64,000 nt of DNA from an uncultured Gammaproteobacteria bacterium (GTDB lineage Bacteria; Pseudomonadota; Gammaproteobacteria; Arenicellales; JAANXG01), in contig CALZGZ010000120.1 in NCBI GenBank assembly GCA_945787105.1, positions 3,159 to 67,158 of the forward strand, written 5' to 3'. The translations under genes were made by a program, and so were the position numbers. Shown here piece after piece: positions 12,245 through 49,364 of the stretch. Below the pieces are notes generated by a model. The model did not search any database and was not told where the DNA came from. It worked only from the letters and a program-made list of their open reading frames with translations. The first letter of the stretch is position 1, and the number at the start of each line of letters is the position of its first letter.

Positions 12245-12676
12245 TCATTGCCCCAAAGCTAGCGTACGTAGCAATAATTGTTTCGATGTACTGATCAACT
12301 CCACATTCGTTTGGTACGTGCGCGAAGCGGACATCATGTTCGCCATCTCCTCGATAGTGTTTACATTGGCATGGAAAACATAACCCTCGTCGTCCGCAAG
12401 CGGATGTTCAGGTTGGTAACGCCGGTGCGGCGGGGCGTCGCTCTCAACTATGCCTGCGACTCGGACACGGGCTAACGACTGCGCATCGAAATCGTTCATC
12501 ACGTCGATAAAACGAGGCGTCTCTGCAGCAAACACCGGATGTCGCGCACGATAGACCTGGCTGCTGTTTCCGGCCACCGCATCCGCATTGGCAAGGTTGC
12601 TCGCGATCACATTCAATCGCAACGCCTGGGCGCTCATCCCGGATCCCGCAACATCAAACACCGATAATAAGGACAT
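12245..12676 (-). CDS. flgC: flagellar basal-body rod protein FlgC
   Basis: 143 aa. SLLSVFDVAGSGMSAQALRLNVIASNLANADA; C-terminal SNVNTIEEMANMMSASRTYQTNVE. Confidence 0.95.
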   Translation of the reverse strand: MSLLSVFDVAGSGMSAQALRLNVIASNLANADAVAGNSSQVYRARHPVFAAETPRFIDVMNDFDAQSLARVRVAGIVESDAPPHRRYQPEHPLADDEGYVFHANVNTIEEMANMMSASRTYQTNVELISTSKQLLLRTLALGQ

Positions 12677-12678
12677 AC

Positions 12679-13089
12679 CTAATCCCCCTTAACCGCACTG
12701 AGCATCGACTTGAACTTACCTCCCAGCAGCCGCAGGCTGACCAGATAAGCAACGGAGTTCTTGGTAAACTCGCTTCGTTCCACGTCGGCATCCACAGTAT
12801 TCCCGTCCAACGAAGCTTGGGTAGGCACCCGGTATAACGCAGTCGTTCCAAACCACGACTGACCTGCGCCAGTGACATGGTTGGCGTGAGTCCGGATCAG
12901 GCGAATCGATTTTGCAACGTCGGTGTCCGGCTGGGATTGTCGCAGGACATCCTTGAAGTCGAGATCACGTGATTTGTAGTGCGGCGTATCAGCGTTGGCG
13001 AGGTTCGACGCCAGAATCTCGGCCCGCCGCACCCGGATGAGCAGGGCGTCGTCGTGTATTCCCATGGCGCTATCTAAGCTTATTCCCAT
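12679..13089 (-). CDS. flgB: flagellar basal-body rod protein FlgB
   Basis: 136 aa. LLIRVRRAEILASNLANADTPHYKSRDLDF. GGAGA Shine-Dalgarno 4-5 nt upstream of the ATG. Confidence 0.95.
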   Translation of the reverse strand: MGISLDSAMGIHDDALLIRVRRAEILASNLANADTPHYKSRDLDFKDVLRQSQPDTDVAKSIRLIRTHANHVTGAGQSWFGTTALYRVPTQASLDGNTVDADVERSEFTKNSVAYLVSLRLLGGKFKSMLSAVKGD

Positions 13090-13127
13090 CAGTGTCTCCG
13101 CGTATTGAAATCCACGCTAGAGACAAA

Positions 13128-13142
13128 GCAAGTAGCGTGCCA
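13128..13142 (-). promoter_or_regulatory. sigma54 (-24/-12) promoter for flgBCDE...
   Basis: The minus strand reads TGGCACGCTACTTGC, an exact fit to TGGCAC-N5-TTGC. It lies 39-53 nt upstream of the flgB ATG. Confidence 0.75.
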
Positions 13143-13279
13143 ATGCTAAGATCGGGGCGAATTCTGGTGCCGGCCTCACGCAAACCCGCGTGGATTCCCG
13201 CACAGCGGCAAAGAATTACCGCCGGAACGGCAACGCCGAGACGCTCTGGGATAGGGCTGCGTGCATTTCACGCGAACAA

Positions 13280-13894
13280 CTACTTGGGCTTTTCGTGTCG
13301 AAGTTTTGCCGCCTGGCACTTTAGTATGTGTTTAATGAGGATGTCTCGATCGCTCTCATTGATCACTTCGAATTCAACCGCAATCCGATAAGGATGCGTG
13401 GGCAGATACCTCGATCGTCGCTCGCTGCGCACGACGGTCCCTCTGCACATAAGCGCAACGCAGGAGGACATCAGCAACAACTTCAGTTGCAGGTAAACAC
13501 CCGGGCTAATTCTCTCACCGGCGTAGAACGCCAGACCTCCGCCACTCAGACTTGCTTCCTTAACGCTGCCGTAGCCGGTTTCAACTTCCTGCAAAAGCAA
13601 CAGCCGGTACATCTCGTCCACACGAGACTCAAGATGCCGCAGATACTGCGCAACATCGGGCGATTGCTGCTCAATGCGAGAAAGTATCAAATCCTGGTTC
13701 CCGAGCAGACGCTTGGAGCCGCCCCGCAGTGAGTATAAGTCATCGGTATCGCCGTGATCGTCCTGCGCTTCACTGATGACGCGGTATTTGATGACGACTT
13801 GATCAGTGATCCTGAAATAACGCCGCCGCTCGCAACCCTCAAGATCCCCGTCCCGGTTGCGTGCTTGAACAGATTTTTCGATTCCGGTACTCAC
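13280..13894 (-). CDS. PilZ-domain (c-di-GMP receptor-type) protein with a long insertion between the two binding motifs
   Basis: 204 aa. RRxxxR motif (RRRYFR, aa 23-28) and a D/NxSxxG-like motif (SLSGGG, aa 115-120). Starts 20 nt after the motB stop, on the same strand. Confidence 0.7.
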   Translation of the reverse strand: MSTGIEKSVQARNRDGDLEGCERRRYFRITDQVVIKYRVISEAQDDHGDTDDLYSLRGGSKRLLGNQDLILSRIEQQSPDVAQYLRHLESRVDEMYRLLLLQEVETGYGSVKEASLSGGGLAFYAGERISPGVYLQLKLLLMSSCVALMCRGTVVRSERRSRYLPTHPYRIAVEFEVINESDRDILIKHILKCQAAKLRHEKPK

Positions 13895-13914
13895 TTACTA
13901 GTGCCCCAAAAAAG

Positions 13915-14919
13915 TCAATCGGTTTGCGTCGACCCGGTAGAGTTACGCGGCCGATCCTCGCCCCGATCCATGGAGTTGATCATCTCGTCAACGATTCTGG
14001 TGTTTGCCTCCAGGATTCCAAGCGTATTGACCCGAGGGGTACCCGGCGCGCTGACTGAGAAGGCTTCGCCCTGTTTGTCGTCACCACGGATGATCGTCAG
14101 CTCGACACGACGATTCTTTGCGCGTCCAGCTGCAGACTTGTTCTCGCCTATGGGCCGGGTGTCGGCGAATCCGGCTACCTGGAAACGTACCGGATCGAGC
14201 TTTCGGTCGTGGAGCAACTCATGCAGAACAGTCACCGCGCGGGCTGCCGATAACTCCCAGTTGGACCGGTACCGCGCAGTCTTTATCGGTACGTTGTCGC
14301 TATGTCCGGCAATGGTCACCTCGCCCGGGGTGTACTCGAGCACCGCTGCGATCTTTCCCAGAATCGGCTTGAACTGTTGCATCAATTGGGCGCCGCCGGA
14401 TGGAAACGCACCCTTTTCGCGGATGCGGATGACGAGTTTTTTCTCTTCAGTGTCGAGCTCGATCAACCCGCGATCGATCTCCGCCTGCAGCGCATTTTCG
14501 ATCTGCTTTAGCTCGGCGTCGGTCTGGTCACCCGCTCTGGGATCGGCCTGGGTGACGTTGACCTGCGGGTCTCGCTTTGCGCGCATATAGTCCGGCACAT
14601 CCAGGTAATGCTTGAGGTGATCCACCGTCTGTTGCCTGACCCGATTCAGTATGGTTGGATTGGGGCGCCCGGCACTGAATTCTTGGGCAATTACGTTTAC
14701 CCCACGGGGCGGATCCTTGGTTTTCACTTCGCGTTGCAAGCCGAATGCCTCCCGCAGGGAACCCGCCATCTGCTTGTATTTGATCAGGTCCATCTCGGAG
14801 AAACTCAAGATCAAAACAAAGAAACACATCAACAGCGTGGCCAGGTCTGCAAAGGTCGTCATCCACATCGGCGCACCGCCGCCGCCGTCGTTTTTCGGTA
14901 ATGCAACTGGCTCGTCCAT
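13915..14919 (-). CDS. motB: flagellar stator protein MotB/MotD/PomB type (OmpA-like C-terminal domain)
   Basis: 334 aa. N-terminal PMWMTTFADLATLLMCFFVLILSF contains the conserved stator Asp. C-terminal OmpA-like block GHSDNVPI...NWELSAARA...NRRVEL. Confidence 0.85.
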   Translation of the reverse strand: MDEPVALPKNDGGGGAPMWMTTFADLATLLMCFFVLILSFSEMDLIKYKQMAGSLREAFGLQREVKTKDPPRGVNVIAQEFSAGRPNPTILNRVRQQTVDHLKHYLDVPDYMRAKRDPQVNVTQADPRAGDQTDAELKQIENALQAEIDRGLIELDTEEKKLVIRIREKGAFPSGGAQLMQQFKPILGKIAAVLEYTPGEVTIAGHSDNVPIKTARYRSNWELSAARAVTVLHELLHDRKLDPVRFQVAGFADTRPIGENKSAAGRAKNRRVELTIIRGDDKQGEAFSVSAPGTPRVNTLGILEANTRIVDEMINSMDRGEDRPRNSTGSTQTD

Positions 14920-14967
14920 ATTTCGTCGTCACGTGTAATAAGGTTTAAAACCGGGAGATAAGCTGAA

Positions 14968-15744
14968 TCAAGCCGCTTTCTTGGCGTTACGCTGGCTGAC
15001 CGGTAAGTATGTTTTGAGCAAATCCTCCATTACGTGTGGATTAAGGCCTTCTTGTATGGCGCCAACCGTTTCCAGAATAAGGGATTTGTTCGTCCGCTCT
15101 TCTTTGCTGCGGTGTGCCAGTTTCGCCGCGATCGGAATCGCAATGGCGTTCGCGATGACTGCGCCATAAAGCGTCGTGAGCAGTGCGACGGCCATGGCCG
15201 GCCCGATTTTTTTCGGGTCGTCCATGTTGGAAAGCATTTGCACCAAACCCACCAATGTCCCAATCATCCCCATGGCCGGGGCGACATCAGCAATGGCTTT
15301 GAAAATTGCCTGCCCTTCATCGTGGCGTTCGATGGTCAGATTGATGTCTTTCGCCAGCAATCGCCGCACCAACTGTGGATCGTGGCCATCGACGCACAAC
15401 TGAATCCCCTGGCGCAGGAAATCGTTACTGACGTTGGCGTCCTCCAAAGCCAGCAAGCCGCCCTTGCGCGCAATATTGGCAAGTTCAACACCGTTCTTTA
15501 TGAGTTCGTCTGGTTTCTCTGATTTGTGAAAGAAGGCCTTGACCGCGACCTTGAACGCACCCAGCGTGGTGGCCAACGGAAACTTGACCAGGGTCGCCAT
15601 AAAGGTCCCACCTAACACGATAAACAGCCCCGGCAGATTGACGAATATCAGGGCATTTGGCCCCATCAACACGGCGGCGCTAATAATCGACAAACAACCG
15701 ATCAAGCCAATTAATGTTGCGGGATCCACATTTTTCTCCACCAA
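14968..15744 (-). CDS. motA: flagellar stator protein MotA/MotC/PomA type
   Basis: 258 aa (PomA/MotC-like length). Four predicted TM segments. PAMGMIGTLVGLVQML and ALLTTLYGAVIANAIAIP motifs. Confidence 0.9.
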   Translation of the reverse strand: MVEKNVDPATLIGLIGCLSIISAAVLMGPNALIFVNLPGLFIVLGGTFMATLVKFPLATTLGAFKVAVKAFFHKSEKPDELIKNGVELANIARKGGLLALEDANVSNDFLRQGIQLCVDGHDPQLVRRLLAKDINLTIERHDEGQAIFKAIADVAPAMGMIGTLVGLVQMLSNMDDPKKIGPAMAVALLTTLYGAVIANAIAIPIAAKLAHRSKEERTNKSLILETVGAIQEGLNPHVMEDLLKTYLPVSQRNAKKAA

Positions 15745-15876
15745 AACACACGATCATCACCGGCATAATGAGCCAGCATTGTTGGCTCGGCGTGGTTGGC
15801 GCGCGAACCTTTGTACACGCATGCAACCGGGGTGCTGAACAACCTCCATCCCCGCCAGCCGCTAACCTCGTTTGTG

Positions 15877-15904
15877 TTATCGGGAGCGGATGGGAATTTC
15901 TTTA
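15877..15904 (-). promoter_or_regulatory. candidate sigma28 (FliA) promoter for the motA-motB-PilZ operon
   Basis: The minus strand reads TAAAGAAA-N12-CCCGATAA (consensus TAAAGTTT-N11-GCCGATAA), 133 nt upstream of the motA ATG. The spacer is 1 nt long. Confidence 0.45.
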
Positions 15905-15989
15905 GCCCGCATATCGCACCAGCAAATCCGGAATCGTTGCAACAGGATCCTCAGTGCAAATTGCGGGTTGAGTCTTCCATCGTCATTGA

Positions 15990-16005
15990 TGGCATGAAGA
16001 TTGCT
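15990..16005 (+). promoter_or_regulatory. candidate sigma54 promoter for the FliK-like gene at 16050
   Basis: TGGCATGAAGATTGCT has correct GG-N10-GC spacing. It ends 45 nt upstream of the ATG. Confidence 0.55.
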
Positions 16006-16049
16006 TAACACTCCAAACAAACATTTAACGAACGGACCTGGAGATTCTC

Positions 16050-16964
16050 ATGAACTATCTACTTTCCCCGCTGATTGGATCGAACACGCAGACTGCGGTG
16101 CCGGCGAGCGGAGCGGAAGCCGCTGTCCAGGCTGCGCGTTTGAACGAAGGGCAACTGCCGTTCCATTCACTGTTCAATCAGCAACTTCAGTTACTGCAGC
16201 AGCCTGGAATATTGGCGGGTCAGTCTCCTGCCATGATGGCACCCGCACCGTGGCAACCCTTTGCCATGGGCGGCCAAAGCTTGCCGCTGTCGTCCGCTGG
16301 CATAACGCCGTCTTCGGGTATCACTATAGAATCAGTGACCTACTCACGGATTTCAATGAACGGAAACGGAATTCTCAACACGGTCTACGATGGCTTGGAA
16401 CGGGATCCACAAAACGCCCTTGCCCAATTGCTGGCAAATATCGGTGAACCACCATCCAACGAACTATTGGTTACCGGGAAACCGGAAGGGGTAGCGTCGC
16501 ACACCGAGGCCGAGAAGTCGGATGCCAAGGCGGTGAACCGGTTGGCGCCCGGCTCCGACGAACTGAAGAACCCGGAATATCTCGGTGAAAAGATCGCGAA
16601 GGCGGTCGCCAATATCTCTACCGCGCAAGTTCCAAACGCCCAATTCGCTGTCGACCACCCAACGTATGGGCACGTTGAAGCAAGGGTCGATATCACGGAC
16701 GAGTCCGTCGATTTAGCGTTTGCGGTCCAGGACCCGGAGCTGCGCGCGGCACTCGAAGCGGCGAAGACGGCCATTGAACTCGCTCTGAGCAAACAAGGGT
16801 TAACCCTCGCCAAACTTGAAGTGGGGCCACCCCAGGACGTACCCGAAGTGATCACTCCGGGGACCCGCGAAGAATTGTTTGCATCCTACACTTCGCAACT
16901 CGACGCGGCATTGAACCGTATCATCAGTGACCTGGCGCTGGGTGTCCCCGACAATCGTGCGTAG
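16050..16964 (+). CDS. FliK-like protein (C-terminal flagellar hook-length control 'Flg_hook'-type domain)
   Basis: 304 aa. Low-complexity Q/P/A-rich N-terminal half. C-terminal GHVEARVDITDESVDLAFAVQDPELRAALEAAKTAIELALSKQGLTLAKLEVG resembles the FliK C-terminal domain. GGAG Shine-Dalgarno 7 nt upstream. Confidence 0.6.
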   Translation: MNYLLSPLIGSNTQTAVPASGAEAAVQAARLNEGQLPFHSLFNQQLQLLQQPGILAGQSPAMMAPAPWQPFAMGGQSLPLSSAGITPSSGITIESVTYSRISMNGNGILNTVYDGLERDPQNALAQLLANIGEPPSNELLVTGKPEGVASHTEAEKSDAKAVNRLAPGSDELKNPEYLGEKIAKAVANISTAQVPNAQFAVDHPTYGHVEARVDITDESVDLAFAVQDPELRAALEAAKTAIELALSKQGLTLAKLEVGPPQDVPEVITPGTREELFASYTSQLDAALNRIISDLALGVPDNRA

Positions 16965-16993: not shown

Positions 16994-17009
16994 TGGCACA
17001 AATTTTGCT
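16994..17009 (+). promoter_or_regulatory. sigma54 (-24/-12) promoter for flgA
   Basis: TGGCACAAATTTTGCT is an exact fit to TGGCAC-N5-TTGCW, 60 nt upstream of the flgA ATG. Confidence 0.75.
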
Positions 17010-18243: not shown

Positions 18244-18739
18244 GCTCTCACCGGACCAAATCGCACGTTACGCGGAGTCGCTTCTGACCTTATTCCAGCG
18301 GGAGCATGAGCTCTTGTGCTGTTTGCTTGAATCCATTGATTTGGAATTGGCCGCACTCCAGGCAACCGATGTTGCGGAGATTGAAAACGCCGCCGAGAGT
18401 AAACATCGCCTCATAGAAGAGTTGGAGCAACAGGACAAGGTACGTCGGGCACTGCTGACTGAGGCTGGGTTTATGTCCAATCCTTCCGGCATCGATCAGT
18501 TCATACTGCGATGCGACCCCGAACTCCGTCATGCTTTAAGAGGCACCTGGGACGAGATCCAGGCGCTAATCAGACGCTGTCAAAATGACAATACGAGAAA
18601 TGGTGAACTCAACGCCCTGTCTCAACGGATTGTGAAGCATATGTTGTCTTTTCTACGTGGAGAGTCGCCCGACAACAACGTCTATAACCAGGACGGTCAA
18701 GTTCCAGATATCACACAGAAAGTTTTGGGACGCGTCTAA
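18233..18739 (+). CDS. flgN: flagellar export chaperone FlgN family
   Basis: 168 aa helical protein. Its GTG start overlaps the flgM stop. The FlgN-like N-terminal coiled region and the gene order support the call. Confidence 0.75.
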   Translation: MDAKLSPDQIARYAESLLTLFQREHELLCCLLESIDLELAALQATDVAEIENAAESKHRLIEELEQQDKVRRALLTEAGFMSNPSGIDQFILRCDPELRHALRGTWDEIQALIRRCQNDNTRNGELNALSQRIVKHMLSFLRGESPDNNVYNQDGQVPDITQKVLGRV

Positions 18740-21090
18740 CGAGCCCGGTTGTAAAACGCGTCGATATTTTGTGCCGTGAGCGGCAACGGCCGGGCGACAC
18801 CAAATCCTTGCGCGAAGTTGACGCCTATACGGCGTAACATGTCCAACGCCGGTTTACTCTCCACGTATTCCGCTATGGTCTGCTTCCCCATCAACTGACA
18901 GATTTGATTGATTGCCTTCACCATCGCAAATTCAATTGGATCTTCCTCGATGTTCTTGATGAACAAGCCGTCGATTTTCACATAGTCGACCGGCAACGTC
19001 TTGAGATATGCGAACGACGATAAACCACTGCCGAAGTCATCTAGGGCGAACCGGCAACCGCGTGCTTGAAACACCTGCATGAACGATGCGGTATTGGTGA
19101 GATCGGCGACCGCGGCAGTTTCCGTGATTTCGAAGCAGATCCTGTCCGCAGGAATGCCTTTTTGGTCGAACTGTTCTTCGAGAAAAGTGAGAAACTCGCG
19201 ATCACCGATTGAGTGTCCGGAAAGATTGATCGAACACGAACGCAGCTTTTCAACATGACCAGGATGCTCGACCAACCACGTCAGGCTGGCATCCACGACC
19301 CAGCGATCGATGCGGGTTGACATGGAATAATGTTCGGCGGCGGGCAGGAATTCACCGGGCATTATCAGCTTCCCCGCCTCGTCCCGCATTCTGACCAGGA
19401 TTTCGTATCTGATACCTTGTTCGTAGTAAGGCAGTACGCTGACAATGGGCTGGAAAACAAGCTGAAACCGGTTTTCCTCCAAAGCCCGAGTGATCTCGGA
19501 GACCCACAGCATTTCGCGCCTCCGGCGCACCAACTTTACACCGTGTTCGTCATTGATATGGATGCGATTGCGCCCTTCGCTCTTCGCCACATAGCATGCC
19601 GTATCCGCGGCGCTGAGCACACTCGTAACGCTTTTCGTATGTTCGTTTATCGGAACCACGCCGATGCTGACACCCAAGCTGAATACGGAGGAATCCCAGG
19701 AAAACCGGAATGTTTGGATAGCTTGATACAATGAGTTGGCGATACGCGTCGCGTCTTCGGCTGAACAGTTTTTGATTAGCAATCCGAACTCATCCCCACC
19801 GAGTCTCGCAAGCACGTCTTCTCTCCGGACTTGTTTTGGCAACGACTGTGCCAGTCGACATAACAACGCGTCACCCGCCTCATGTCCACACGTATCGTTG
19901 ATGACCTTGAACTGATCCAGGTCAAGATAACAAAGGTAGTGCACGGATCGATGATTCTTCGTCTCTGCGATGAGCTGCTGCAGATTGACCTCAAACTGCT
20001 GCCTGTTTAACAGGCCAGTCAACGGATCGTGGATCGCGTTATAGGCGAGTTCATCCGATAACTTGTGCGTTTCGGTGACATCCTGGCCGGCACCACGGTA
20101 ACCACGAAACACCCCGTCTTTATCGTAAACCGGCTTTCCATTGACACTCAGTATTCGCGAGTTGCCGTCAGGCCAGCTTGCGACAAACTGGAAGTTTTTG
20201 AAGGGCCGGTGCAGTTCCAGGTCATGGACATGTTTTCCCCATCCTTCGATCTCGTTGTGGTTGGGGATGAATTGGTAGGGTTGCCCGATGACGGTGTGTG
20301 GATCGATGCCGGTGACCCGTTGATAGCGTTCCGAGAGGAAGGTCACGCCGAGATCCGGTCCGGTTTCCCAGAACCAGTCTGCGGCCACCTCAGCGAAGTC
20401 CTGGAAGCGCTCCTTGGCGTCGCGCACCTGGTTTTCGATCCGTTTGCGAACCTCGATTTCCTGCCTCAGGCGATCATTGGCATCGGCGATTTCGCGAGTC
20501 TTCGCATCAACCAGAGATTCCATATCATTGAACAGCCGATGGCTTTTCATCATCTGCCCGAGAAAGCTGCTGAACACCACAAGGGTGCGCCGGCGTGATG
20601 CTTGCTGATCACCCGGATCACGACTGTAGGCGTGGATGACCGCAACCTCGCCGCCGAAAATGCGGACCGGGACACACGCTGGATCATCGGCTTCATGGAG
20701 ACATTTCTGGAATGTTATCGGCGGATCGCCGAGACAGTCTCCGCACAGCGGCGAGAGCTCAACATCCGACAAACATGTTGGGTCGTCACCGGAATCCGCC
20801 GGTGCCAGGTCAGATTGACCACCGGGCTCTGTACATTGCGCATGCACATTGACAACAGTTTCAGCCTGGCAGTCACGCAGCAGAATGAACTTGCAGCGCT
20901 CGAAATCCAGACGTTCGACCACGGCCTCCGCGGCGCACGACAACAGTTCACGTTCCGTCACATTCCGCAGATCGATATCGGACAGCGCCCTGATCGCCGA
21001 TAAGGCCTCGACCAGTGTGTAATACTCAGTGCGAATACGACGTGCCGCCTCAATGCTCGCTAACGAACCGGATATGTGCGTCCTGGTCAT
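18736..21090 (-). CDS. GAF-like/PAS-GGDEF-EAL c-di-GMP turnover protein
   Basis: 784 aa. GGDEF motif RLGGDEFGLL. EAL-domain blocks YEILVR, FEITE, DDFGSGLSS, KIDG and QGF are all present. A PAS-like region (WFWETGPD...) sits upstream. Confidence 0.9.
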   Translation of the reverse strand: MTRTHISGSLASIEAARRIRTEYYTLVEALSAIRALSDIDLRNVTERELLSCAAEAVVERLDFERCKFILLRDCQAETVVNVHAQCTEPGGQSDLAPADSGDDPTCLSDVELSPLCGDCLGDPPITFQKCLHEADDPACVPVRIFGGEVAVIHAYSRDPGDQQASRRRTLVVFSSFLGQMMKSHRLFNDMESLVDAKTREIADANDRLRQEIEVRKRIENQVRDAKERFQDFAEVAADWFWETGPDLGVTFLSERYQRVTGIDPHTVIGQPYQFIPNHNEIEGWGKHVHDLELHRPFKNFQFVASWPDGNSRILSVNGKPVYDKDGVFRGYRGAGQDVTETHKLSDELAYNAIHDPLTGLLNRQQFEVNLQQLIAETKNHRSVHYLCYLDLDQFKVINDTCGHEAGDALLCRLAQSLPKQVRREDVLARLGGDEFGLLIKNCSAEDATRIANSLYQAIQTFRFSWDSSVFSLGVSIGVVPINEHTKSVTSVLSAADTACYVAKSEGRNRIHINDEHGVKLVRRRREMLWVSEITRALEENRFQLVFQPIVSVLPYYEQGIRYEILVRMRDEAGKLIMPGEFLPAAEHYSMSTRIDRWVVDASLTWLVEHPGHVEKLRSCSINLSGHSIGDREFLTFLEEQFDQKGIPADRICFEITETAAVADLTNTASFMQVFQARGCRFALDDFGSGLSSFAYLKTLPVDYVKIDGLFIKNIEEDPIEFAMVKAINQICQLMGKQTIAEYVESKPALDMLRRIGVNFAQGFGVARPLPLTAQNIDAFYNRAR

Positions 21091-21093
21091 GGC

Positions 21094-21969
21094 TTACACA
21101 AACACATCGACCAATTCCAGAACACTTGCGAGCTCCTTTACCGTTCGTTGCGAGACGGCGGCGACCTCATCCGGGGTTATCCGTAACTTCACCAGATCGG
21201 GAAACCGCAGCTCCGCGTCATCATCGCGGTTTAGTATTTGTGAGGCGACATTAGCGCTTGCGCCTACCAGCATACACGATGACCAAAATGTCCCCCAGTA
21301 ATCAACGTCCCGGTGCTTCTCGATCACCGTGCGTACATCTGACGAAAGCTGCCACCGTCGCGCCAATACACCACCGGCCTGTGTGTGATCGAACCCAAGC
21401 ATCTTGGATTCCGCGTCCATCAACGTGCATGCAGGATCTTGCGCTGCCTCTGCGAAGACCATGGACATATCGTCAGGGCACAAATGAGCCAGGACCAGCA
21501 CTCCGATGTTGTGCAGCAGACCGCACAGATAGCACTCATCCGGGTGGGGTCTGTGGAGCGGCGCAGTAATCCTTGCCAGCGAACGCGCCAGGGTTGCGCT
21601 CAACACGGCGCTTGACCAGAAAAGCCGTGAGTTGAAACCGGGGCATCGTCCCGGAGGAAACGAACCGCTCATAATTATGCCGATTACCAAACTCTTGACG
21701 AGGCTGAACCCGAGCACCCGCACGATCGCATCGTGAATCGACCGGCACGGGATACGCTGGGCGAAATACGCCGATCGGGCGAGCCCTAGGATCCGCGCCG
21801 CGACCTCAGGACAGGTCTCGATCGCGTCGGCGAGATCCCGGGCATTCGTGTCGTCGTTCAACACGCTCATCAAACGTTGATGACTTTCGTGTACCGGAGG
21901 GAGTTCGCGCCAACGGCGAATCCCATTCGCTATCTCCAGAGGGAGAACTGTCGAATGCATTGCGTTCAT
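21094..21969 (-). CDS. HDOD-domain signalling protein
   Basis: 291 aa. LPPVHESHQRLMSVL...ADAIETCPEVAARILGLARSAYF...LLHNIGVLVL blocks are typical of HDOD. Its stop lies 3 nt from the start of the GGDEF-EAL gene. Confidence 0.85.
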   Translation of the reverse strand: MNAMHSTVLPLEIANGIRRWRELPPVHESHQRLMSVLNDDTNARDLADAIETCPEVAARILGLARSAYFAQRIPCRSIHDAIVRVLGFSLVKSLVIGIIMSGSFPPGRCPGFNSRLFWSSAVLSATLARSLARITAPLHRPHPDECYLCGLLHNIGVLVLAHLCPDDMSMVFAEAAQDPACTLMDAESKMLGFDHTQAGGVLARRWQLSSDVRTVIEKHRDVDYWGTFWSSCMLVGASANVASQILNRDDDAELRFPDLVKLRITPDEVAAVSQRTVKELASVLELVDVFV

Positions 21970-22620: not shown

Positions 22621-23802
22621 ATGGAATCCATATCAAACTCACTCGTCACCCAGCAGCTGCTCACGGTGTCGTCGAACCATGCCCAGCTCCGTGGGCTCGC
22701 GATCGGGCAGCAGCTCACGGGCACCGTTCTCACTGTGGCGCAACAGGGCACGGTTACACTCCAGGTGAACCAATCCACGTTCAACGCACGGACCACCTTA
22801 CCGTTGATTGCCGGTCAGACCCTGACGCTGGTTGTCGACAAGATTGGCCCGGAGATCCGGCTCAGAATACTGGACCAACAACTTCATTCCTCGAGTCTGG
22901 TCCAGGCAATTCGGCAACAACTGCCGAGACAGGGATCGGTCATTATGTTGTTGATGAATCTTCATCGTATCGCGCGTCAAACCGGCGGGATGCGACTACC
23001 CGGTTCGATTACGCAATTGGCCCGCCAGATCACGCAGGGACTGATGGAGGTCAGCGGTTCTTTGTCCGGGGAAATCGTGAAGCAGGCATTGTTGAACAGC
23101 GGTCATTTCCTGGAGCAACGCTTGTCGAAGCTACTTTCCGAGTTGCGTGACGGCACGTTGGAACGCGATTTCAAGGCAGGCCTAATGCGTCTGCGTACGG
23201 CGCTGTCGAGTGCTCTAGAGCAGATCAGGGCCCAATCCGGGCGTCACGAGAAAAAAACCAGCGTGCCTTCACGGCCGGGCCAACAAACGCGAGGGCCGGC
23301 AAATCCCAATCCGGTTTCGGCACGGGAAGCCGCGTCTCTCAAGGCATTGATCGAATTATCGCAACAGGTGGAAAGTGCGCTTGCCCGAATTCAACTGCAT
23401 CAACTCACCTCCTTGATCGAACAGGAGGGCGCGCGGTCCGTTTGGATGCTGGAACTGCCGGTGCGGGATGGCGAAACGGTACAACTCGTGCGTTTTCGTA
23501 TCGAAAAAGAGCAATCGCGGGACGAACAACAGCCAGATGGGTCTTTTTCTATCGTATTTTCGGTCCAATTACAGGCGCTTGGTGGGGTGCAGGCGCGGCT
23601 TACCTTGTCGGGCAGTTCGATTTCGGTGGTGTTGCAGGCGGAGCGCGATGGGACGGTAAAACTTGCCCGGGCCCATCTCGATGACCTGTGCGGACGCCTG
23701 CAGCAAACCGGGCTGACAGCGGAATCTGTCGTGTGTCTGCATGGACTTCATCTCGAGGAAACCCCAGACTTCCATACACCACTGGTGGATATTCAGGCGT
23801 GA
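22621..23802 (+). CDS. FliK-like hook-length-control family protein (second copy, different subfamily)
   Basis: 393 aa. C-terminal VWMLELPVRDGETVQLVRFRI...FSIVFSVQLQALGGVQARLTLSGSSISVVLQAERDGTVKLARAHLDDLCGRLQQTGL resembles the Flg_hook domain. Confidence 0.65.
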   Translation: MESISNSLVTQQLLTVSSNHAQLRGLAIGQQLTGTVLTVAQQGTVTLQVNQSTFNARTTLPLIAGQTLTLVVDKIGPEIRLRILDQQLHSSSLVQAIRQQLPRQGSVIMLLMNLHRIARQTGGMRLPGSITQLARQITQGLMEVSGSLSGEIVKQALLNSGHFLEQRLSKLLSELRDGTLERDFKAGLMRLRTALSSALEQIRAQSGRHEKKTSVPSRPGQQTRGPANPNPVSAREAASLKALIELSQQVESALARIQLHQLTSLIEQEGARSVWMLELPVRDGETVQLVRFRIEKEQSRDEQQPDGSFSIVFSVQLQALGGVQARLTLSGSSISVVLQAERDGTVKLARAHLDDLCGRLQQTGLTAESVVCLHGLHLEETPDFHTPLVDIQA

Positions 23803-27154: not shown

Positions 27155-28377
27155 GCATCAAGCGGCTCACCTTGTTCGGCGGTGATCCGGAATTCAGCCG
27201 CACGCTCCATGTCGGTACGCCAAACATCGGCGACACCAAGCGATTTCTAACGCGGGTCGAAAACCTGCTGAACAGGCGCGTACTCACCAACCGCGGTCCA
27301 CTGGTCCGCGAACTGGAGAGTCGCATGACTGAGCTGCTGAGCGTCAAACACTGCGTAACCATGAGCAACGGTACCGCGGCATTGGAAATCGCCACACGGG
27401 CCCTCAATTTCAAGGGCAACGCAATCGTCCCCGCACTGACGTTTGTCGCCACCGCCCATGCGTTGGAATGGCAACGCGTGCGGCCGATATTCGCGGACAT
27501 CATGCCCACCACACACCATCTGGACCCCCGCTGGATCAGACGCTTGGCCACTTCACTGACCAGCGGTGTCATCCCGGTGAATCTGTGGGGGCGCACCGTG
27601 GACATCGACGCGGTCGTGGCAGAGGCTACTATGCGCGACCTGGCCGTCGTGTTTGACTCCTCTCACGCTTTCGGTTGCACCTACAAGGGAAAGCCAGTCG
27701 GTGGATTCGGCGATGCGGAGATTTTTAGCTTCCACGCCACCAAATTCGTCAACACCTTCGAGGGCGGCGCGGTCACAACTAACGACGACGCGTTGGCGGA
27801 ACGGATCAGGTTGATGCAGAACTTCGGTTTCGCGGATCGCGATGAAGTCATACACGTGGGCATCAATGGAAAAATGAATGAAGTCCAAGCCGCCATGGGT
27901 CTCACGTCGGTAGAGGCAATGAAAGGCTTTATCTCACACAATCACGAGAACTATTGTGCCTATCTCGAGGGCCTCAGATACCTGGACGGTATCAACCTCA
28001 TTGAATATGACGCAGCGGAACGAAACAATTACCAGTACATAGTGATTGAAGTCGATGACGTCGTGACCGGACTACACCGGGACCAACTCATGCAGGTGCT
28101 ACATACCGAGGGCGTGGACGCCAGGCGTTACTTCTACCCGGGGTGTCATCGTATGGAACCCTACCGCTCGCGGCCAAAACCCAATGGCCAGGATCTTAAG
28201 CTGACGGACGAGATGCTTGCTCGCGTTTTGACACTGCCCACCGGGACCGCGGTGACCACGGGTGATATACGTCGCGTCGTTGCGCTGATGCAACGCATAC
28301 ACGAACGGCGAAACGACATCTCCCGCAAACTCGCGAAAAACGACCGCACTACTAGATTGACGAACTCGAGAAGGTGA
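27151..28377 (+). CDS. DegT/DnrJ/EryC1/StrS-family PLP-dependent sugar aminotransferase
   Basis: I moved the start to GTG 27151, which forms a GTGA overlap and has GGAGG 7 nt upstream. SNGTAALEIA and FDSSHAFG...EIFSFHATKFVNTFEGGAV are present, the latter holding the PLP-lysine context. Confidence 0.9.
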   Translation: MSIKRLTLFGGDPEFSRTLHVGTPNIGDTKRFLTRVENLLNRRVLTNRGPLVRELESRMTELLSVKHCVTMSNGTAALEIATRALNFKGNAIVPALTFVATAHALEWQRVRPIFADIMPTTHHLDPRWIRRLATSLTSGVIPVNLWGRTVDIDAVVAEATMRDLAVVFDSSHAFGCTYKGKPVGGFGDAEIFSFHATKFVNTFEGGAVTTNDDALAERIRLMQNFGFADRDEVIHVGINGKMNEVQAAMGLTSVEAMKGFISHNHENYCAYLEGLRYLDGINLIEYDAAERNNYQYIVIEVDDVVTGLHRDQLMQVLHTEGVDARRYFYPGCHRMEPYRSRPKPNGQDLKLTDEMLARVLTLPTGTAVTTGDIRRVVALMQRIHERRNDISRKLAKNDRTTRLTNSRR

Positions 28378-31300
28378 ACGACATGGCAGGTCAAATACTC
28401 GTAACCGTGGTGATTTCGACCTACAACCACGAACATTTCATCGGCCGCTGCATTGAAAGTGTTCAACTGCAGAACGTTTCGCCAATGGAGATCATTATTC
28501 TGGATGACTACTCCTCGGACAACACCCCCGGCGTCATCGAAGATTTCCGATGTGACAAACGAATCACCTACGTAAGAAACCCGGAAAACATCGGACCACG
28601 CCTGAACAACACCCGCGCCCTCGAAGTAGGGAGCGGACGATATCATGTCTGGTTGCATGGGGACGACTACCTGCTCCCCGGCCACCTCGAGCGGATCATC
28701 GGTGGTCTCGAACAACGTCCCGAGTGTTCCCTGGGATACGCGCCGCCGGTGTTTGTCGATGCGGCCGGGGAGACCTTACAAACCCCGGACCATCCCGGCC
28801 GTTCCAAACAGGATTATGCCGGTGGCCGCAATGAACTGGCGTTACTGCTCATTCATGACAACTATATTGTCCCTTCGTCCGTGGTGTTCCGGCGGAGCGA
28901 GTTAAACCGGGTCGGCAACTTCCATCCATCCATACCTGGCGCCGACTGGGACCTGTACACGCGTGTCGCGATACAAAATCCCAATTTCTACTACACGAAC
29001 ACCCTCGGCGTCGGCTATCGTTTTCACCCGGGGCAAGTATCGGTGCAGTTCTACGCCAATACCGATCCGCTCAAGGCACATCTCCATGTGGTAGAACAGG
29101 CCATGTATTCCAAAGCCGCCGGCCGGTTGCAGGGTCGCGAACTGGAGATCCTGGACTATCTCAACCGGCGCATCCAATCCTTTGGCGCGGCGGCCTGGAC
29201 ACAAGACCAAGACATACGCCGCGTCCGGGGAATGCTTGCGCGGCACTCATCAGTGCGAACGCCGGCGGCTGTTGGCCGAACGCCAACGATCAGTATCGTT
29301 ATTCCCTGCTACCGGCAGGCGCAGTACCTGACCGACGCGTTGGACAGCGTACTGGCTCAGGGCTTTGAAGACTGGGAGTGCCTGGTTGTCGATGATGGGA
29401 GTCCGGACGACACGGCGCAGGTAGTGACCAGATTCATTAAAGACCACGGCGAATCCAGAATCCGCTTGATCACCAAATCTAACGGCGGGCTCGCCAGCGC
29501 CCGTAACGCCGGCGCCGCGGAATCCCGCGGCCGCTACATCCTGCCGCTGGATGCTGACGACAAACTGCATCCGGACTACCTTACAGAAACGGTAGCCGTT
29601 CTTGATCGCGACCCTGAGACCGATATCGTTTATGTGGACGAACAGAATTTTGGTTTGGCCGGCCACGTGCATGTCAAAACCCAGGTATCCCTGGAAGCGC
29701 TCAAACAGCACAACGTCCACGACTATTGCAGCCTGTACCGCCGCAAAGTCTGGGAGCAAATCGGCGGATATTCGCCGGCCATGTATCTGGGCGGCGAAGA
29801 CTGGCAATTCTGGCTCGCGGCGTCGGCTCACGGTTTCCGGTCGCACCATCTGCGCAAGCCGCTGTTTTTGTACCGAAACCGCGAGCACACCATGGTCAGC
29901 GAGACCCAGGCACATCTCGGTCTCGTACGTGCACAGCTTGTCCTGCATCATCCAGGGATAGTTGGATCCGGTGAGATTCGCGCTGCAGAAGACACTGTGA
30001 AACGGACCCCGGCCCCACTTCGGGAAAAACTCCGGCAGGCGCTGCTTAAGCATACGGACAATCCTTTGTTGTGCCGGTTCAGCCAGCTGGCCGATGCGGG
30101 CGCACGAGACGCCCCGCTGGAACTGCCGTCACTCATTGATCCGCCGCTGGTTTCGGTCATCGTGACGACCATGGACCGTCCGGAGTTTTTAAAGGACGCG
30201 GTAGACTCGTTGGTGAGGCAAACCTACGAGAATTGGGAGGCGATCATCGTCAACGACGGTGGGGATGATATTGGCGATTGGATTACCACCGCCGATCCAA
30301 CCGGCCGGATTCATTACATTCGACATCCGCAAAATTGTGGGCTGTCGGCGGCACGGAACACCGGCATTTCGCTGTCCTCGGGAGAGATTCTGTGCTACCT
30401 GGACGACGATGACCGTTTGTTTCCGGACCACCTTGAAACCATTGTCGACGCCATGCAGACGAACAATACCAGTCTGGTCTATACCGAGGCCGAGTACGTG
30501 CGGGAACTCATCGAAGACGGCCAGCGCAGAGACCTGTCGCGCACGTCGCCGTATTCGCATATCGATTATTCCTTGGAACGGTTGCATATCGGTAACTTCA
30601 TCCCGGTAAACACCTGGGCCCACCGGCGGGAGCTGATCGCTTACGCCGGGGACTTCGACGTGACGCTCCATGCCCTCGAGGACTGGGACCTGTTGCTGCG
30701 GCTCGCGCGCATTACCACACCTGAGCACATCCCGAGGATCACGGCAGAGGTGCGGCTCCGTCCGGGAACGGTGAACGATAACATGAGCCAAAGAGCGCGC
30801 GGCGACTTACCCGCCCTGCATCGCAAGATCTATGCCCGCTACGCAATGCCGGGAAACCACAATGTGGACCGGCAACGAGAACGAATGCTAAAGCAACTCG
30901 AGACGGATCCGGCACCAACCAAACCCGCTGCAGCCACGCAACACCGCTATGACCAATGGCGGCAACGCCACACGCTAACTGAGAGCCAGGCACAGTACAT
31001 GGCGGAGCGAATGATGCTGACGTGGCAGGTACGGCCAAGCATTCAACTTATCGTCACCCACCAGGCGGGACAGGAGGACGCACTGGCCGACACCCTCGAC
31101 AGCCTGGGCCAGCAGTTGTACAAAGGGTGGGGCCTCAGCGTTGTGTCTCCGTGTCCCTGCCCCGACGACAGCTTCAATCGATTACCCAACCTGGAGTGGG
31201 TGGAGGCGCAAGGCGACCGCATCGCCGGTATAAACGGTGTCGTCGGCGATTCTCAGGCTGACTGGATCGTTCAACTCGACGCAGGCACGCGTTTTTCCCC

Positions 31301-33710
31301 GGACGCACTGTTTCGATGGGTCGATTACATCAATCTGCATCCGCATTGGCAGTTGTTCTACTGTGATGAGGACCGCGTTTCGGCCGATGGGATACACCAT
31401 GACCCGCTGTTCAAACCGGACTTTAACTTGGATCTATTGCGATCGACATCCTATATGGGAGATGTGGTACCAGTGCGACGCGAGTTGCTGGCCCGGCTCG
31501 ACGGCTACGGCAGGAGAACGGGTGCTGGTGTCTACGACATGGCGCTGCGCGTGCTCGATGCCGAGGGCGAGTCGATCATCGGTCACATTCCGGAGGTGTT
31601 GATTCACTGCAGAGACCGCCCGGACCCGCAACGCGACGAACAGACCGTCGCCGAGAATCGGCGTCTCACCGTTGAAGACCATTTGCAGCGCAACCACATC
31701 CGGGCAACCGTTGGCCACAATCTGGTCCCCGGTACGTTCTTCGTCGACTATGCCTTAAGCGAGTCGCCGATGGTGTCGATCATCATCCCCTACGGGGACC
31801 AAATCGACCCATCGCGGTTGTGTCTATCGAGCGTACTCGAAAAGACCGACTATCCCCACTACGAGGTCATCGTGGTCGACGATCGTGGTTCGGATTCGGT
31901 CGCCACAAGCGAAATTGGAATGATCAACCAAAGCGCGCGAAACGTACGCGTGGTGCGGAATCCCGAGCCGGGAGGGATCCCGGCGATGCTCAATTTTGCC
32001 GCGCGCGAGGCGCAGGGAGTGTTCCTATTGCTGTTGGATCCCGGAACCCAAGCCATACATGCCGAATGGTTGGCTCGCATGGTGGCGGTCGCACTACGGC
32101 CCGAAGTCGGCGCGGTGGGCGCCAGACTGGTCGATCTCAATGGCCGTATCAAACAGGCGGGACTCGTACTCGGCATGCAGGACGGCGTGGGCCGCCCGTT
32201 CGCCGGAGCCGACATGCAGGCCGCCGGATACCTGGGACGCCACCAGGTGACGCAGAATTACTCCGCGCTTGAAGCGGGGTGCATGCTTGTCAAGCGTGAT
32301 CAGTTCTTACAGCTCGGCGGCTTGAACGCGCAAGAATTCAAGCAATCGTATTTTGACGCCGATTTCTGCCTACGATTGCAGGACGTGGGATGCAAGTTGG
32401 TGTGGACGCCGTTTGCAACCTTGCTGCACCACGGGACCACGGCGGTGCAGGGACAACCGAGCCCTGCGCACAGCAATACCCTTGCTGCGGAACTCACCGC
32501 CTTCCAGCAGCGTTGGCTAACCAGGCTCGCCAGCGATCCGGCGCACAACCCCAATCTGTCACTGGTGGAACAGACTATGCAAATCGAGGTCGAGCTCGCC
32601 GTTCCGTGGCTCGACAGACATCATCCCCGCCCACGGATCTGGGCCTTCCCGCTCAACGACCAGGGTGTCGGACAGTACCGGGTGCGTCAACCGCTTGACG
32701 CTTTGGATCGTGCGGCGCTCGCCGAGCATGCGTTGTTGCCACCCCACGAAAGGGTCGAAAGGGCACGCGTGCCAACGGTGTGCGAACTCGCCCGGGCCGA
32801 TGCCGATACGTTACTGATTCAACACGGATTCAGTGATCTGTTTCTGCGCTGGCTGCCAAAATATCGTGCACTGGATATCGCGTTTCTGGTATTCGGGTTG
32901 GACGATAACCTGCTCGAGATCCCCGAAACAAACGACCGGCGCGATAAACTACCGGCGGATCTCGAGCGGCGCATTCGGGAGGCCTTGTCCCATTGTCACC
33001 GGCTCATCGTGCCGACAGAACCTCTGGTAGAGGTTTACCGGAGATTCATCGACGACGTTCGCGTCGTTCCCAACCAACTTGAACAATGGCGGTGGCAACA
33101 CCTGCGGCCAGACCGTCGGCCAATGAAGGGCAGCGGCGGAAAGCCGCGCGTGGGCTGGGTCGGCGCCCAGCAGCACCGCGGTGATCTGGCTTTGCTGGCG
33201 CCGGTAATGAAGGCCCTGCACGAGGACGTCGATTGGGTCATGATGGGGATGTGTCCCGCGGCGCTTCGGCGCTACGTGCGCGAATTTCACCAACCTGTGC
33301 CCTATAGCCGTTATCCGGAAAAGCTGTCCTCGTTGAACCTGGATCTGGCCGTGGCGCCCCTGGAAATCAATGTGTTCAACGAATGCAAAAGCGATCTGCG
33401 CATCCTCGAGTACGGGGCGCTCGGCTGGCCGGTCGTTGCCACGGACATACATCCGTACCGTGGTAAACCGGTCACCCGCCTGTCGAATAGCGCAACCTTG
33501 TGGATCGACACGATCCGCGAGCGGATCAATGATCTAGAGGCGCTGGCCGCCGAGGGCAGAGCGCTGCGCGAGTGGGTTCACCAACATCGCTTCCTGGAAC
33601 ATCAGCTCATGCCGTGGTTCGAGGCAATGTTATCTGATGCGGTGCTCGGGCGCTTTCCGATGACTTATGGGAACGAGCAGAATGGTATTCCTTCCGCCGT
33701 GGCAAGATGA
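28374..33710 (+). CDS. giant multi-module glycosyltransferase (five GT2/GT-A-type modules + one GT-B-like C-terminal module)
   Basis: 1778 aa. The GTG start overlaps the aminotransferase stop (GTGA). Repeated GT2 signatures: VVISTYN..ILDDYSSDNT..HGDD; SIVIPCY..VVDDGSPDDT..LDADD; SVIVTTM..IVNDGGDD..LDDDD; LDAG..YCDED..FKPDFNLDLL; SIIIPYG..VVDDRGSD. The C-terminal CKSDLRILEYGALGWPVVATD is GT1/GT4-like. Confidence 0.9.
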   Translation: MNDMAGQILVTVVISTYNHEHFIGRCIESVQLQNVSPMEIIILDDYSSDNTPGVIEDFRCDKRITYVRNPENIGPRLNNTRALEVGSGRYHVWLHGDDYLLPGHLERIIGGLEQRPECSLGYAPPVFVDAAGETLQTPDHPGRSKQDYAGGRNELALLLIHDNYIVPSSVVFRRSELNRVGNFHPSIPGADWDLYTRVAIQNPNFYYTNTLGVGYRFHPGQVSVQFYANTDPLKAHLHVVEQAMYSKAAGRLQGRELEILDYLNRRIQSFGAAAWTQDQDIRRVRGMLARHSSVRTPAAVGRTPTISIVIPCYRQAQYLTDALDSVLAQGFEDWECLVVDDGSPDDTAQVVTRFIKDHGESRIRLITKSNGGLASARNAGAAESRGRYILPLDADDKLHPDYLTETVAVLDRDPETDIVYVDEQNFGLAGHVHVKTQVSLEALKQHNVHDYCSLYRRKVWEQIGGYSPAMYLGGEDWQFWLAASAHGFRSHHLRKPLFLYRNREHTMVSETQAHLGLVRAQLVLHHPGIVGSGEIRAAEDTVKRTPAPLREKLRQALLKHTDNPLLCRFSQLADAGARDAPLELPSLIDPPLVSVIVTTMDRPEFLKDAVDSLVRQTYENWEAIIVNDGGDDIGDWITTADPTGRIHYIRHPQNCGLSAARNTGISLSSGEILCYLDDDDRLFPDHLETIVDAMQTNNTSLVYTEAEYVRELIEDGQRRDLSRTSPYSHIDYSLERLHIGNFIPVNTWAHRRELIAYAGDFDVTLHALEDWDLLLRLARITTPEHIPRITAEVRLRPGTVNDNMSQRARGDLPALHRKIYARYAMPGNHNVDRQRERMLKQLETDPAPTKPAAATQHRYDQWRQRHTLTESQAQYMAERMMLTWQVRPSIQLIVTHQAGQEDALADTLDSLGQQLYKGWGLSVVSPCPCPDDSFNRLPNLEWVEAQGDRIAGINGVVGDSQADWIVQLDAGTRFSPDALFRWVDYINLHPHWQLFYCDEDRVSADGIHHDPLFKPDFNLDLLRSTSYMGDVVPVRRELLARLDGYGRRTGAGVYDMALRVLDAEGESIIGHIPEVLIHCRDRPDPQRDEQTVAENRRLTVEDHLQRNHIRATVGHNLVPGTFFVDYALSESPMVSIIIPYGDQIDPSRLCLSSVLEKTDYPHYEVIVVDDRGSDSVATSEIGMINQSARNVRVVRNPEPGGIPAMLNFAAREAQGVFLLLLDPGTQAIHAEWLARMVAVALRPEVGAVGARLVDLNGRIKQAGLVLGMQDGVGRPFAGADMQAAGYLGRHQVTQNYSALEAGCMLVKRDQFLQLGGLNAQEFKQSYFDADFCLRLQDVGCKLVWTPFATLLHHGTTAVQGQPSPAHSNTLAAELTAFQQRWLTRLASDPAHNPNLSLVEQTMQIEVELAVPWLDRHHPRPRIWAFPLNDQGVGQYRVRQPLDALDRAALAEHALLPPHERVERARVPTVCELARADADTLLIQHGFSDLFLRWLPKYRALDIAFLVFGLDDNLLEIPETNDRRDKLPADLERRIREALSHCHRLIVPTEPLVEVYRRFIDDVRVVPNQLEQWRWQHLRPDRRPMKGSGGKPRVGWVGAQQHRGDLALLAPVMKALHEDVDWVMMGMCPAALRRYVREFHQPVPYSRYPEKLSSLNLDLAVAPLEINVFNECKSDLRILEYGALGWPVVATDIHPYRGKPVTRLSNSATLWIDTIRERINDLEALAAEGRALREWVHQHRFLEHQLMPWFEAMLSDAVLGRFPMTYGNEQNGIPSAVAR

Positions 33711-44196: not shown

Positions 44197-44347
44197 CTAA
44201 CTTAGACAACGGCATTCATCAATTCTTGAGGCAGCCAGGTGTGCCAGAGAATAATCCAAGCGAAACCGGGGTTTTAAAACAATTGAAAACTCGGGGCCTG
44301 TGTTTGCGTACACACAGTCTCCAACCGATTGGACACAATTAGGTGTA

Positions 44348-49338: not shown

Positions 49339-49364
49339 TTATCGGATACCCAAGGATCACAAAT

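Follow-up and report, generated by a model that had tools for sequence, protein, structure and literature searches.

A tPilZ gene behind the pomA-pomB stator genes of an uncultured gammaproteobacterium and its probable functional pairing with the flagellar stator

The gene considered here directly follows the flagellar stator genes pomA and pomB in a stretch of 64,000 nt from an uncultured gammaproteobacterium (contig CALZGZ010000120.1; this whole stretch is called the window below, and all positions refer to it unless another locus is named). Its product belongs with the tetramer-forming PilZ (tPilZ) proteins, whose published definition combines a canonical PilZ barrel with about 60 inserted aa that fold into helices alpha2 and alpha3 between strands b1 and b2, an interlock motif of the form [DENH]x[KR]h[DEN] and a C-terminal helix of basic character (bioRxiv 10.1101/814665; Chen et al.; Li et al.). 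The class is further characterized by stable homotetramers, the absence of fused domains and one copy in each genome. The family comprises more than 3,000 proteins (Galperin & Chou, bioRxiv 10.1101/814665), and its sequences have been published as too divergent for detection by sequence alone. The archetype is XCC6012 of Xanthomonas campestris (PDB 3PH1, 3RQA). The gene for XCC6012 is part of a flagellar cluster (fliC-fliD-fliS-unknown-pilZ...rpoN-fleQ), and motility is lowered when it is knocked out. PA2989, a tPilZ protein of Pseudomonas aeruginosa with Ser at the D/N position of the second motif for cyclic dimeric GMP (c-di-GMP), binds c-di-GMP with a dissociation constant of 188 nM or 2.88 µM; the spacing of about 90 residues between the two c-di-GMP motifs and the exchange of D/N for Ser are known features of PA2989-type tPilZ proteins. 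In the literature searched, neither a stator-operon location nor a molecular target is reported for XCC6012, PA2989 or PlzB, and no molecular target is reported for any tPilZ protein outside Campylobacterota.

Within that phylum, FlgX of Campylobacter jejuni is a tPilZ-type stator scaffold that lies beneath the MotA pentamer and is required for the stator ring; its charged C-terminal helix (alpha4) contacts MotA and is needed for function (PMC11725899). FlgX is a positive, c-di-GMP-independent factor (PMC11725899), and its homologs are devoid of both c-di-GMP motifs. According to the authors of that study, an association of tPilZ proteins with stators in other phyla is still to be established (PMC11725899). 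A PilZ protein of a different kind, MotL, is encoded 34 bp downstream of the lateral motB of Shewanella putrefaciens; it binds c-di-GMP and exerts a c-di-GMP-dependent braking effect on the motor (PMC8203827). The PilZ proteins MotI and FlgZ have stator proteins, MotA and MotC, as their targets. For the genes of YcgR, FlgZ and MotI, no stator-operon location is reported in the literature searched.

In the window, the stator genes and the PilZ gene form three head-to-tail open reading frames (ORFs) on the minus strand, in the order pomA/motA, pomB/motB, PilZ gene, with gaps of exactly 48 nt (pomA-pomB) and 20 nt (pomB-PilZ gene). The longest ORF of pomA (14968-15744) begins with TTG at 15744 and encodes 258 aa. 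The true start is likely to be GTG at 15729 (253 aa) rather than this TTG, because GGAG precedes the GTG and because the PomA model and the called homologs begin there. The product matches MotA_ExbB (Pfam, E-value 9e-31) and the NCBIfam PomA equivalog (367.7 bits versus a cut-off of 341), a match in which the model begins at residue 7. The pomB gene (13915-14919) encodes a protein of 334 aa with a MotB_plug domain and an OmpA-like peptidoglycan-binding domain, which scores 343.9 bits against the NCBIfam MotB family PRK08944 (cut-off 259). The third gene (13280-13894) encodes a stand-alone protein of 204 aa that has no fused domain, and GTG 13894 is its sole in-frame start upstream of the RxxxR motif. 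No second tPilZ copy was seen within the 64-kb window.

About 150 nt upstream of pomA lies a sigma28 (FliA)-type motif, TAAAG-N16-CCGATAA (TAAAGAAATTCCCATCCGCTCCCGATAA; 15877-15904, minus strand). The pattern TAAAG-N14-17-CCGATAA has three matches in the window versus 0.01 expected from shuffled sequences. The two closest relatives (L001 and L002) have the same sigma28-type motif at the same distance upstream of pomA, and at least nine loci of more distant relatives (L012, L015, L017, L018, L020, L021, L028, L034 and L038) have AAAGTTT-N11-12-CCGATA at 100-160 nt ahead of pomA. On the other side, 45 nt past the tPilZ stop, there is a weak terminator-like hairpin (13218-13234, minus strand), a consensus match only, with a 7-bp stem and a poor T run. 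It is followed by an exact sigma54 core, TGGCAC-N5-TTGC (13128-13142, minus strand, 0 mismatches), which lies upstream of flgB and would mark the downstream boundary of the stator operon; a second exact sigma54 core is located upstream of flgA (16994-17008, plus strand). A sigma70 promoter scan of 12500-16500 gave no match. A sigma54 promoter just upstream of pomA was considered and rejected, as the GG/GC spacing is wrong. Taken together, the tight gaps, the conserved upstream sigma28-type motif and the separate, exact sigma54 promoter of flgB support the assignment of pomA, pomB and the tPilZ gene to one putative operon, a FliA-type unit of its own between sigma54-driven hook/basal-body operons. 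Such a promoter would match the hierarchy in Vibrio, where transcription of the stator genes depends on sigma28 (PMC9303241). A preliminary description of this stretch had reported the three head-to-tail genes, both gaps and a sigma28-like motif, all of which were recovered, and the co-transcription with the stator that it assumed is supported by the gaps, the conserved sigma28-type motif and the separate flgB promoter.

An AlphaFold2 model of the PilZ protein was built on an alignment of 63 sequences (A2; 25-35% identity to the window protein) and has a mean predicted local distance difference test (pLDDT) score of 81. From the N terminus, the model consists of about 22 disordered residues, RxxxR, b1 (29-40), a loop of poor order, helices, b2-b6 (111-178) and a C-terminal helix (180-200). 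The strands span residues 29-40, 111-116, 120-125, 134-141, 146-159 and 169-178, and pLDDT exceeds 90 throughout the barrel. Strands b1 and b2 are separated by about 70 inserted aa (aa 41-110; 13565-13774, minus strand), which comprise a disordered loop and predicted helices at 55-63, 67-77 (alpha2) and 79-106 (alpha3). An insert of similar size is present in 63 of the 63 aligned relatives. Hydrophobic residues of alpha3 are placed 3-4 apart (positions 81, 85, 88, 92, 95 and 99) and form a heptad-like stripe. In the same helix, ESRVD (aa 89-93; 13616-13630, minus strand) fits the interlock motif; the central K/R is at position 91, where K or R is found in at least 90% of the A2 sequences. The C-terminal helix (aa 180-200, ESDRDILIKHILKCQAAKLRH; 13295-13357, minus strand) is amphipathic and basic, is predicted with pLDDT above 90, and is a candidate partner-binding surface.

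When this model was compared with the PDB using Foldseek, ranks 1-7 were all XCC6012 chains (3RQA/3PH1; E-values 5.5e-6 to 1.4e-4). The alignments cover 175-195 columns including the helices, with template modelling (TM) scores of 0.44-0.55, and their root-mean-square deviations are high (8-14 Å), which reflects the comparison of a monomer model with a single chain of a tetramer. MotI, MrkH and YcgR match the model over the barrel of about 100 residues only. Given the predicted topology, the XCC6012 fold match and the interlock motif with its conserved K/R, the PilZ protein is, as modelled, an ordinary member of the tPilZ type, a known architecture; this assignment rests on fold, topology and motifs, not on a sequence match. 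At the sequence level, Pfam PilZ (PF07238) is matched with an E-value of 6e-8 (33 bits versus a cut-off of 22.5), over aa 90-190 only. No Pfam match to an N-terminal PilZN/YcgR domain (YcgR_N / YcgR_2) was obtained at E <= 1, and merely the 22 low-confidence residues precede RxxxR. When the PDB was searched by sequence with profiles A1 and A2, XCC6012 was not among the matches. The search gave coiled-coil noise (haemagglutinin HA2), and A2 found the MotA-binding clutch MotI/YpfA of B. subtilis (5VX6), the best match of that profile (E-value 2.7e-6), which covers the barrel and the C-terminal helix.

The first c-di-GMP motif, RxxxR, is represented by RRRYFR (aa 23-28; 13811-13828, minus strand), immediately before b1, and the second, [D/N]hSxxG, by SLSGGG (aa 115-120; 13535-13552, minus strand), on b2. 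They are separated by 86 residues. In SLSGGG, L at the h position, S117 and G120 fit the motif, and Ser replaces D/N. R23, R24, R28 and G120 are identical in all A2 sequences, and S117 and G119 in at least 90% of them; at the first position of the second motif, N is the commonest residue in the relatives and S is frequent. RxxxR and xLSGGG are nearly invariant and show the highest conservation of all positions in the family. Five residues of the C-terminal helix (D182, L186, H189, Q194 and R199) are also at least 90% conserved. This strong conservation of motif and helix residues argues that c-di-GMP binding has probably been retained and that the C-terminal helix is likely to be a functional surface. 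The family around the window protein is not small: a profile search of a word-indexed database found 131 relatives, and in an exhaustive library it gave 582 clusters with E <= 1e-30, or 2,356 when the limit was E <= 1e-10; almost all of the proteins are 185-230 aa long.

The gene order around these relatives was analyzed in a scan for related loci that included one genome per species, used a 12-sequence alignment (A3) and required an exact match to two peptide patterns. It returned 38 loci, a biased sample rather than a census, all relatives found being from Gammaproteobacteria. Linkage was sorted by tblastn with the window proteins, and two loci were too short to judge. In 21 of the 36 assessable loci, pomA-pomB lies directly upstream of the tPilZ gene on the same strand, and in many of them the tPilZ start follows the pomB stop after 12-20 nt. 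Altogether, the pomA-pomB-tPilZ module is found in at least three unrelated wider settings: in a flagellar cluster, between fliK-like/flgA genes and flgB (window, L001 and L002); between msrB and dcd-mrp-metG, where there are no other flagellar genes (L012, L021, L027 and L041); and next to a glnE-sized gene in Immundisolibacteraceae (L035 and L037). In a rough neighbour-joining tree, the linked genes occupy several deep branches, and the unlinked genes form essentially one clade; the placement of L007 in this tree is meaningless, since its tPilZ sequence could not be cleanly extracted (possibly a frameshift or an assembly error). Because the gene order persists through sequence divergence and rearrangements across distant lineages, a functional pairing of the tPilZ protein with the stator is probable. 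In another locus (L038, 4242-6706), the pomB homolog consists of two tblastn pieces about 1.7 kb apart, which may be due to an insertion in the stator gene or to an assembly problem.

These data allow a comparison with the described systems. The window protein resembles XCC6012 in size (about 190-205 aa), in being a stand-alone protein and in having the two-helix insert, the interlock motif and the basic C-terminal helix; in contrast, XCC6012 has lost the c-di-GMP motifs, and the two proteins share 11-13% identity. With PA2989 it shares the retained RxxxR and, in the second motif, the exchange of D/N for Ser. The likeness to FlgX, judged by the published description, consists in the tPilZ fold and the linkage to flagellar genes. 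However, FlgX is without c-di-GMP motifs, is encoded in a ubiA-flgX-flgW context rather than with motAB and has been reported only from Campylobacterota, whereas the window protein has both motifs, the second with Ser for D/N, a pomAB context and gammaproteobacterial relatives. MotL is similarly a stand-alone PilZ protein without a YcgR-type N-terminal domain, is encoded directly after motB and has intact c-di-GMP motifs. Yet it has 144 aa, its motifs are about 40 residues apart (R33 to D73), and it lacks an insert of tPilZ size, while the window protein, though encoded 20 nt past motB, has 204 aa and the 70-aa insert. In addition, MotL belongs to a proton-driven lateral system and not to a PomAB-type stator, and its in vitro partners are C-ring proteins. 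YcgR, FlgZ and MotI share the c-di-GMP-binding PilZ barrel and the C-terminal helix with the window protein, but they have an N-terminal PilZN domain, and the window protein instead has a helical insert that would be suited to tetramer formation.

In the light of this comparison, the preliminary description needs to be revised in part. Its account of the protein was accurate in that the two motifs lie at aa 23-28 and 115-120, 86 residues apart and with Ser for D/N, that the gap is filled by a helical insert (AlphaFold2 helices 55-63, 67-77 and 79-106) and that a YcgR-type N-terminal domain is missing. It had, however, presented the protein as an atypical PilZ protein, which is instead of the known tPilZ type (XCC6012 fold match; bioRxiv 10.1101/814665), and the motif spacing and the Ser as oddities, both of which have been described for PA2989-type tPilZ proteins that bind c-di-GMP. 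Its proposal to define the insert by profile search and structure prediction led to a PilZ barrel with a helix insert (AlphaFold2, Pfam PilZ), although not to the xPilZ type that it had envisaged. That class was rejected, as xPilZ domains are divergent N-terminal PilZ-like domains of two-domain proteins and the window protein has a single domain. MotL, the gene of which is located just downstream of motAB in S. putrefaciens (PMC8203827), contradicts its claim that the genes of the known brakes lie outside stator operons. Of the overall interpretation, the operon, the competence for c-di-GMP and a probable stator link, the latter suggested by the conserved gene order across distant lineages, can be retained, and the novelty of the architecture and the absence of precedents cannot.

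On balance, we regard it as somewhat more probable than not that the tPilZ gene, as the third member of a late flagellar operon dependent on sigma28, encodes a c-di-GMP-sensing, stator-docking tetramer. By analogy with XCC6012 and FlgX, the long helix alpha3 would form a parallel four-helix coiled-coil core, resulting in a tetramer with four barrels and four exposed C-terminal helices. Each barrel would bind c-di-GMP, giving up to four sites, as can be expected from PA2989 with the same Ser variant. The example of FlgX and the gene order suggest that the tetramer would dock via its C-terminal helix on the cytoplasmic face of the PomA pentamer in the stator unit (PomA5B2). Canonical PilZ structures suggest, furthermore, that c-di-GMP would order the N-terminal RxxxR segment against the barrel and thereby alter the docking on the stator unit, so that stator engagement or torque would follow the c-di-GMP level. 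As to the direction of the effect, we favor inhibition at high c-di-GMP, by a brake, a clutch or stator release, by analogy with MotI, YcgR and MotL. This is the least secure step of the proposal, and the data would fit equally well with a supporting role that c-di-GMP either releases or strengthens.

Several points weigh against this proposal. Tetramer formation, c-di-GMP binding and PomA binding are features that we infer by analogy with described proteins. The first part of the insert (aa 41-64) has low confidence in the AlphaFold2 model. Using hmmscan, no match to Pfam PilZ_2 (PF16823), the tPilZ model, was found at E <= 1, only PF07238, and PilZ_2 is likewise absent from the precomputed Pfam annotations of all homologs, which contain PF07238 only. 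Among the described proteins, PA2989 and PlzB have no stator partner reported in the literature searched. MotL pulled down FliG2, FliM2 and FliN2 and showed no stator interaction in a two-hybrid assay (PMC8203827). As FlgX is a positive, c-di-GMP-independent factor, a brake role is not implied by homology. Lastly, no pomA-pomB is found within 7 kb of the tPilZ gene in 15 of the 36 loci, which are mainly from Methylophaga or Piscirickettsiaceae, and in L033 (5873-7651) the tPilZ gene has the msrB..dcd-mrp-metG setting without pomAB at the site where L012, L021, L027 and L041 have it, the stator genes having been either lost or moved there.

The positive role of FlgX raises the possibility that the window protein is a constitutive, FlgX-like scaffold, that is, a fixed cytoplasmic support that assembles or stabilizes PomAB units and for which c-di-GMP has no regulatory role. 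FlgX is the only tPilZ protein with a defined motor role, and co-transcription with the stator genes would fit a partner that is made in matching amounts. Nevertheless, the top conservation of RxxxR and xLSGGG would be unexpected if ligand binding were dispensable, both motifs have been lost in the FlgX homologs, and the gene for a PAS-GGDEF-EAL protein beside the flagellar cluster also speaks against a role that is independent of c-di-GMP. We therefore consider such a scaffold unlikely.

A different partner is suggested by the proteins that MotL pulled down. The window protein could be a c-di-GMP adaptor for the C-ring (FliG/FliM/FliN) or for a Che protein, in which case its co-expression with the stator would merely reflect that both are encoded by late flagellar genes. 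That YcgR-type brakes have been reported to contact the rotor as well as the stator would be in line with this explanation. It is difficult to reconcile with the gene order: the gene travels with pomAB into the msrB..dcd-mrp-metG contexts, which lack other flagellar genes, and the conserved pairing is with the stator and not generally with the flagellar regulon. Since, in addition, FlgX contacts MotA, the probability of a C-ring or Che adaptor seems low to us.

The clade of tPilZ genes that as a whole lacks stator linkage would fit a general c-di-GMP receptor with a non-flagellar target, such as exopolysaccharide or virulence functions suggested for PA2989, PlzB and XCC6012, and the adjacency to pomAB would then be a neutral legacy. 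Indeed, PA2989 and PlzB have been reported to affect exopolysaccharide or biofilm formation. However, altered motility is among the phenotypes of PA2989 and XCC6012 mutants, and the adjacency has been kept at 26-35% protein identity, in at least three wider contexts and with very short gaps, which makes a neutral legacy quite improbable. The c-di-GMP-sensing, stator-docking tetramer thus remains the explanation that we favor.

In the unlinked loci of Methylophaga and Piscirickettsiaceae, which are almost all of them, a PIN-PhoH gene precedes the tPilZ gene. This order, a PIN-PhoH ATPase gene followed by the tPilZ gene and often located after metH, represents a second conserved neighbourhood (L005, L006, L008-L011, L013, L014, L016, L023, L025, L026, L030, L031 and L043-L045).

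The PAS-GGDEF-EAL protein gene in the window (18736-21090, minus strand), a c-di-GMP turnover gene, directly adjoins flgN at the edge of the flagellar cluster. The next gene encodes an HDOD protein (21094-21969, minus strand), and this pair is kept in L001 and L002. These two proteins may supply or remove c-di-GMP locally for the tPilZ protein; the neighbourhood fits local c-di-GMP control and proves nothing. A further HDOD protein, with a cNMP-binding domain (37698-39008, plus strand), a third one (43230-44078, minus strand) and a T2SSE-family ATPase with an MshEN domain (61954-63753, plus strand) are also encoded in the window. The MshEN domain binds c-di-GMP. The C-terminal Flg_hook domain of FliK is found on two separate ORFs (16050-16964 and 22621-23802, both plus strand). 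The first of these is divergent from pomA, with a near-consensus sigma54 core at 15990-16004. A 1,778-aa ORF (28374-33710, plus strand), located after an ATP-grasp-like gene and a DegT-type aminotransferase gene, might indicate a glycosylation or modification locus near the flagellar genes.

The two other strict sigma28-type motifs of the window are at 51303-51329 (plus strand) and 53367-53394 (minus strand). The former lies just past a chemotaxis cluster, cheA-MCP-cheB-cheR (44300-51357; MCP, methyl-accepting chemotaxis protein), ahead of small ORFs at 51378-51740 and 51826-52302. The latter is located in an Ion_trans/Ion_trans_2 channel gene, within the 5' end of its longest ORF (53419-52355); because of this internal motif, the true ORF of the channel gene may be shorter, and the gene may belong to the FliA regulon.

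No pomAB-tPilZ or motAB-tPilZ operon was described in the literature covered by full-text searches. Nor is one reported in two large comparative studies of PilZ proteins, of which one is without any mention of stators and the other mentions them for the YcgR type only. The conserved stator-tPilZ operon therefore appears to be undescribed, whereas each of its constituents has a precedent, namely the protein type, its c-di-GMP binding and the location of a PilZ gene within a stator operon. What the module adds is that it joins two known ideas, the c-di-GMP-binding tPilZ proteins and the stator-docking tPilZ protein FlgX. Interest is limited by the fact that the organisms carrying it are known as uncultured metagenome-assembled genomes.

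For Gammaproteobacteria, pomA-pomB-tPilZ represents independent evidence, from gene order, for an association of tPilZ proteins with stators. As the proteins encoded in these operons still carry the c-di-GMP motifs, they are a candidate route by which c-di-GMP could reach PomAB-type stators, and the operon hints at where the function of PA2989 and PlzB might be sought. A more far-reaching notion, which we put forward only tentatively and hold to be rather doubtful, is that the tPilZ class as a whole comprises cytoplasmic partners of the 5:2 stator units, with pomA-pomB-tPilZ as the ancestral, c-di-GMP-sensing form of FlgX. If this were true, c-di-GMP would act on Na+-type polar motors via a four-site tetramer docked under PomA, and a function would be at hand for the more than 3,000 proteins of an orphan family, PA2989, PlzB, Lpg1926 and XCC6012 among them.

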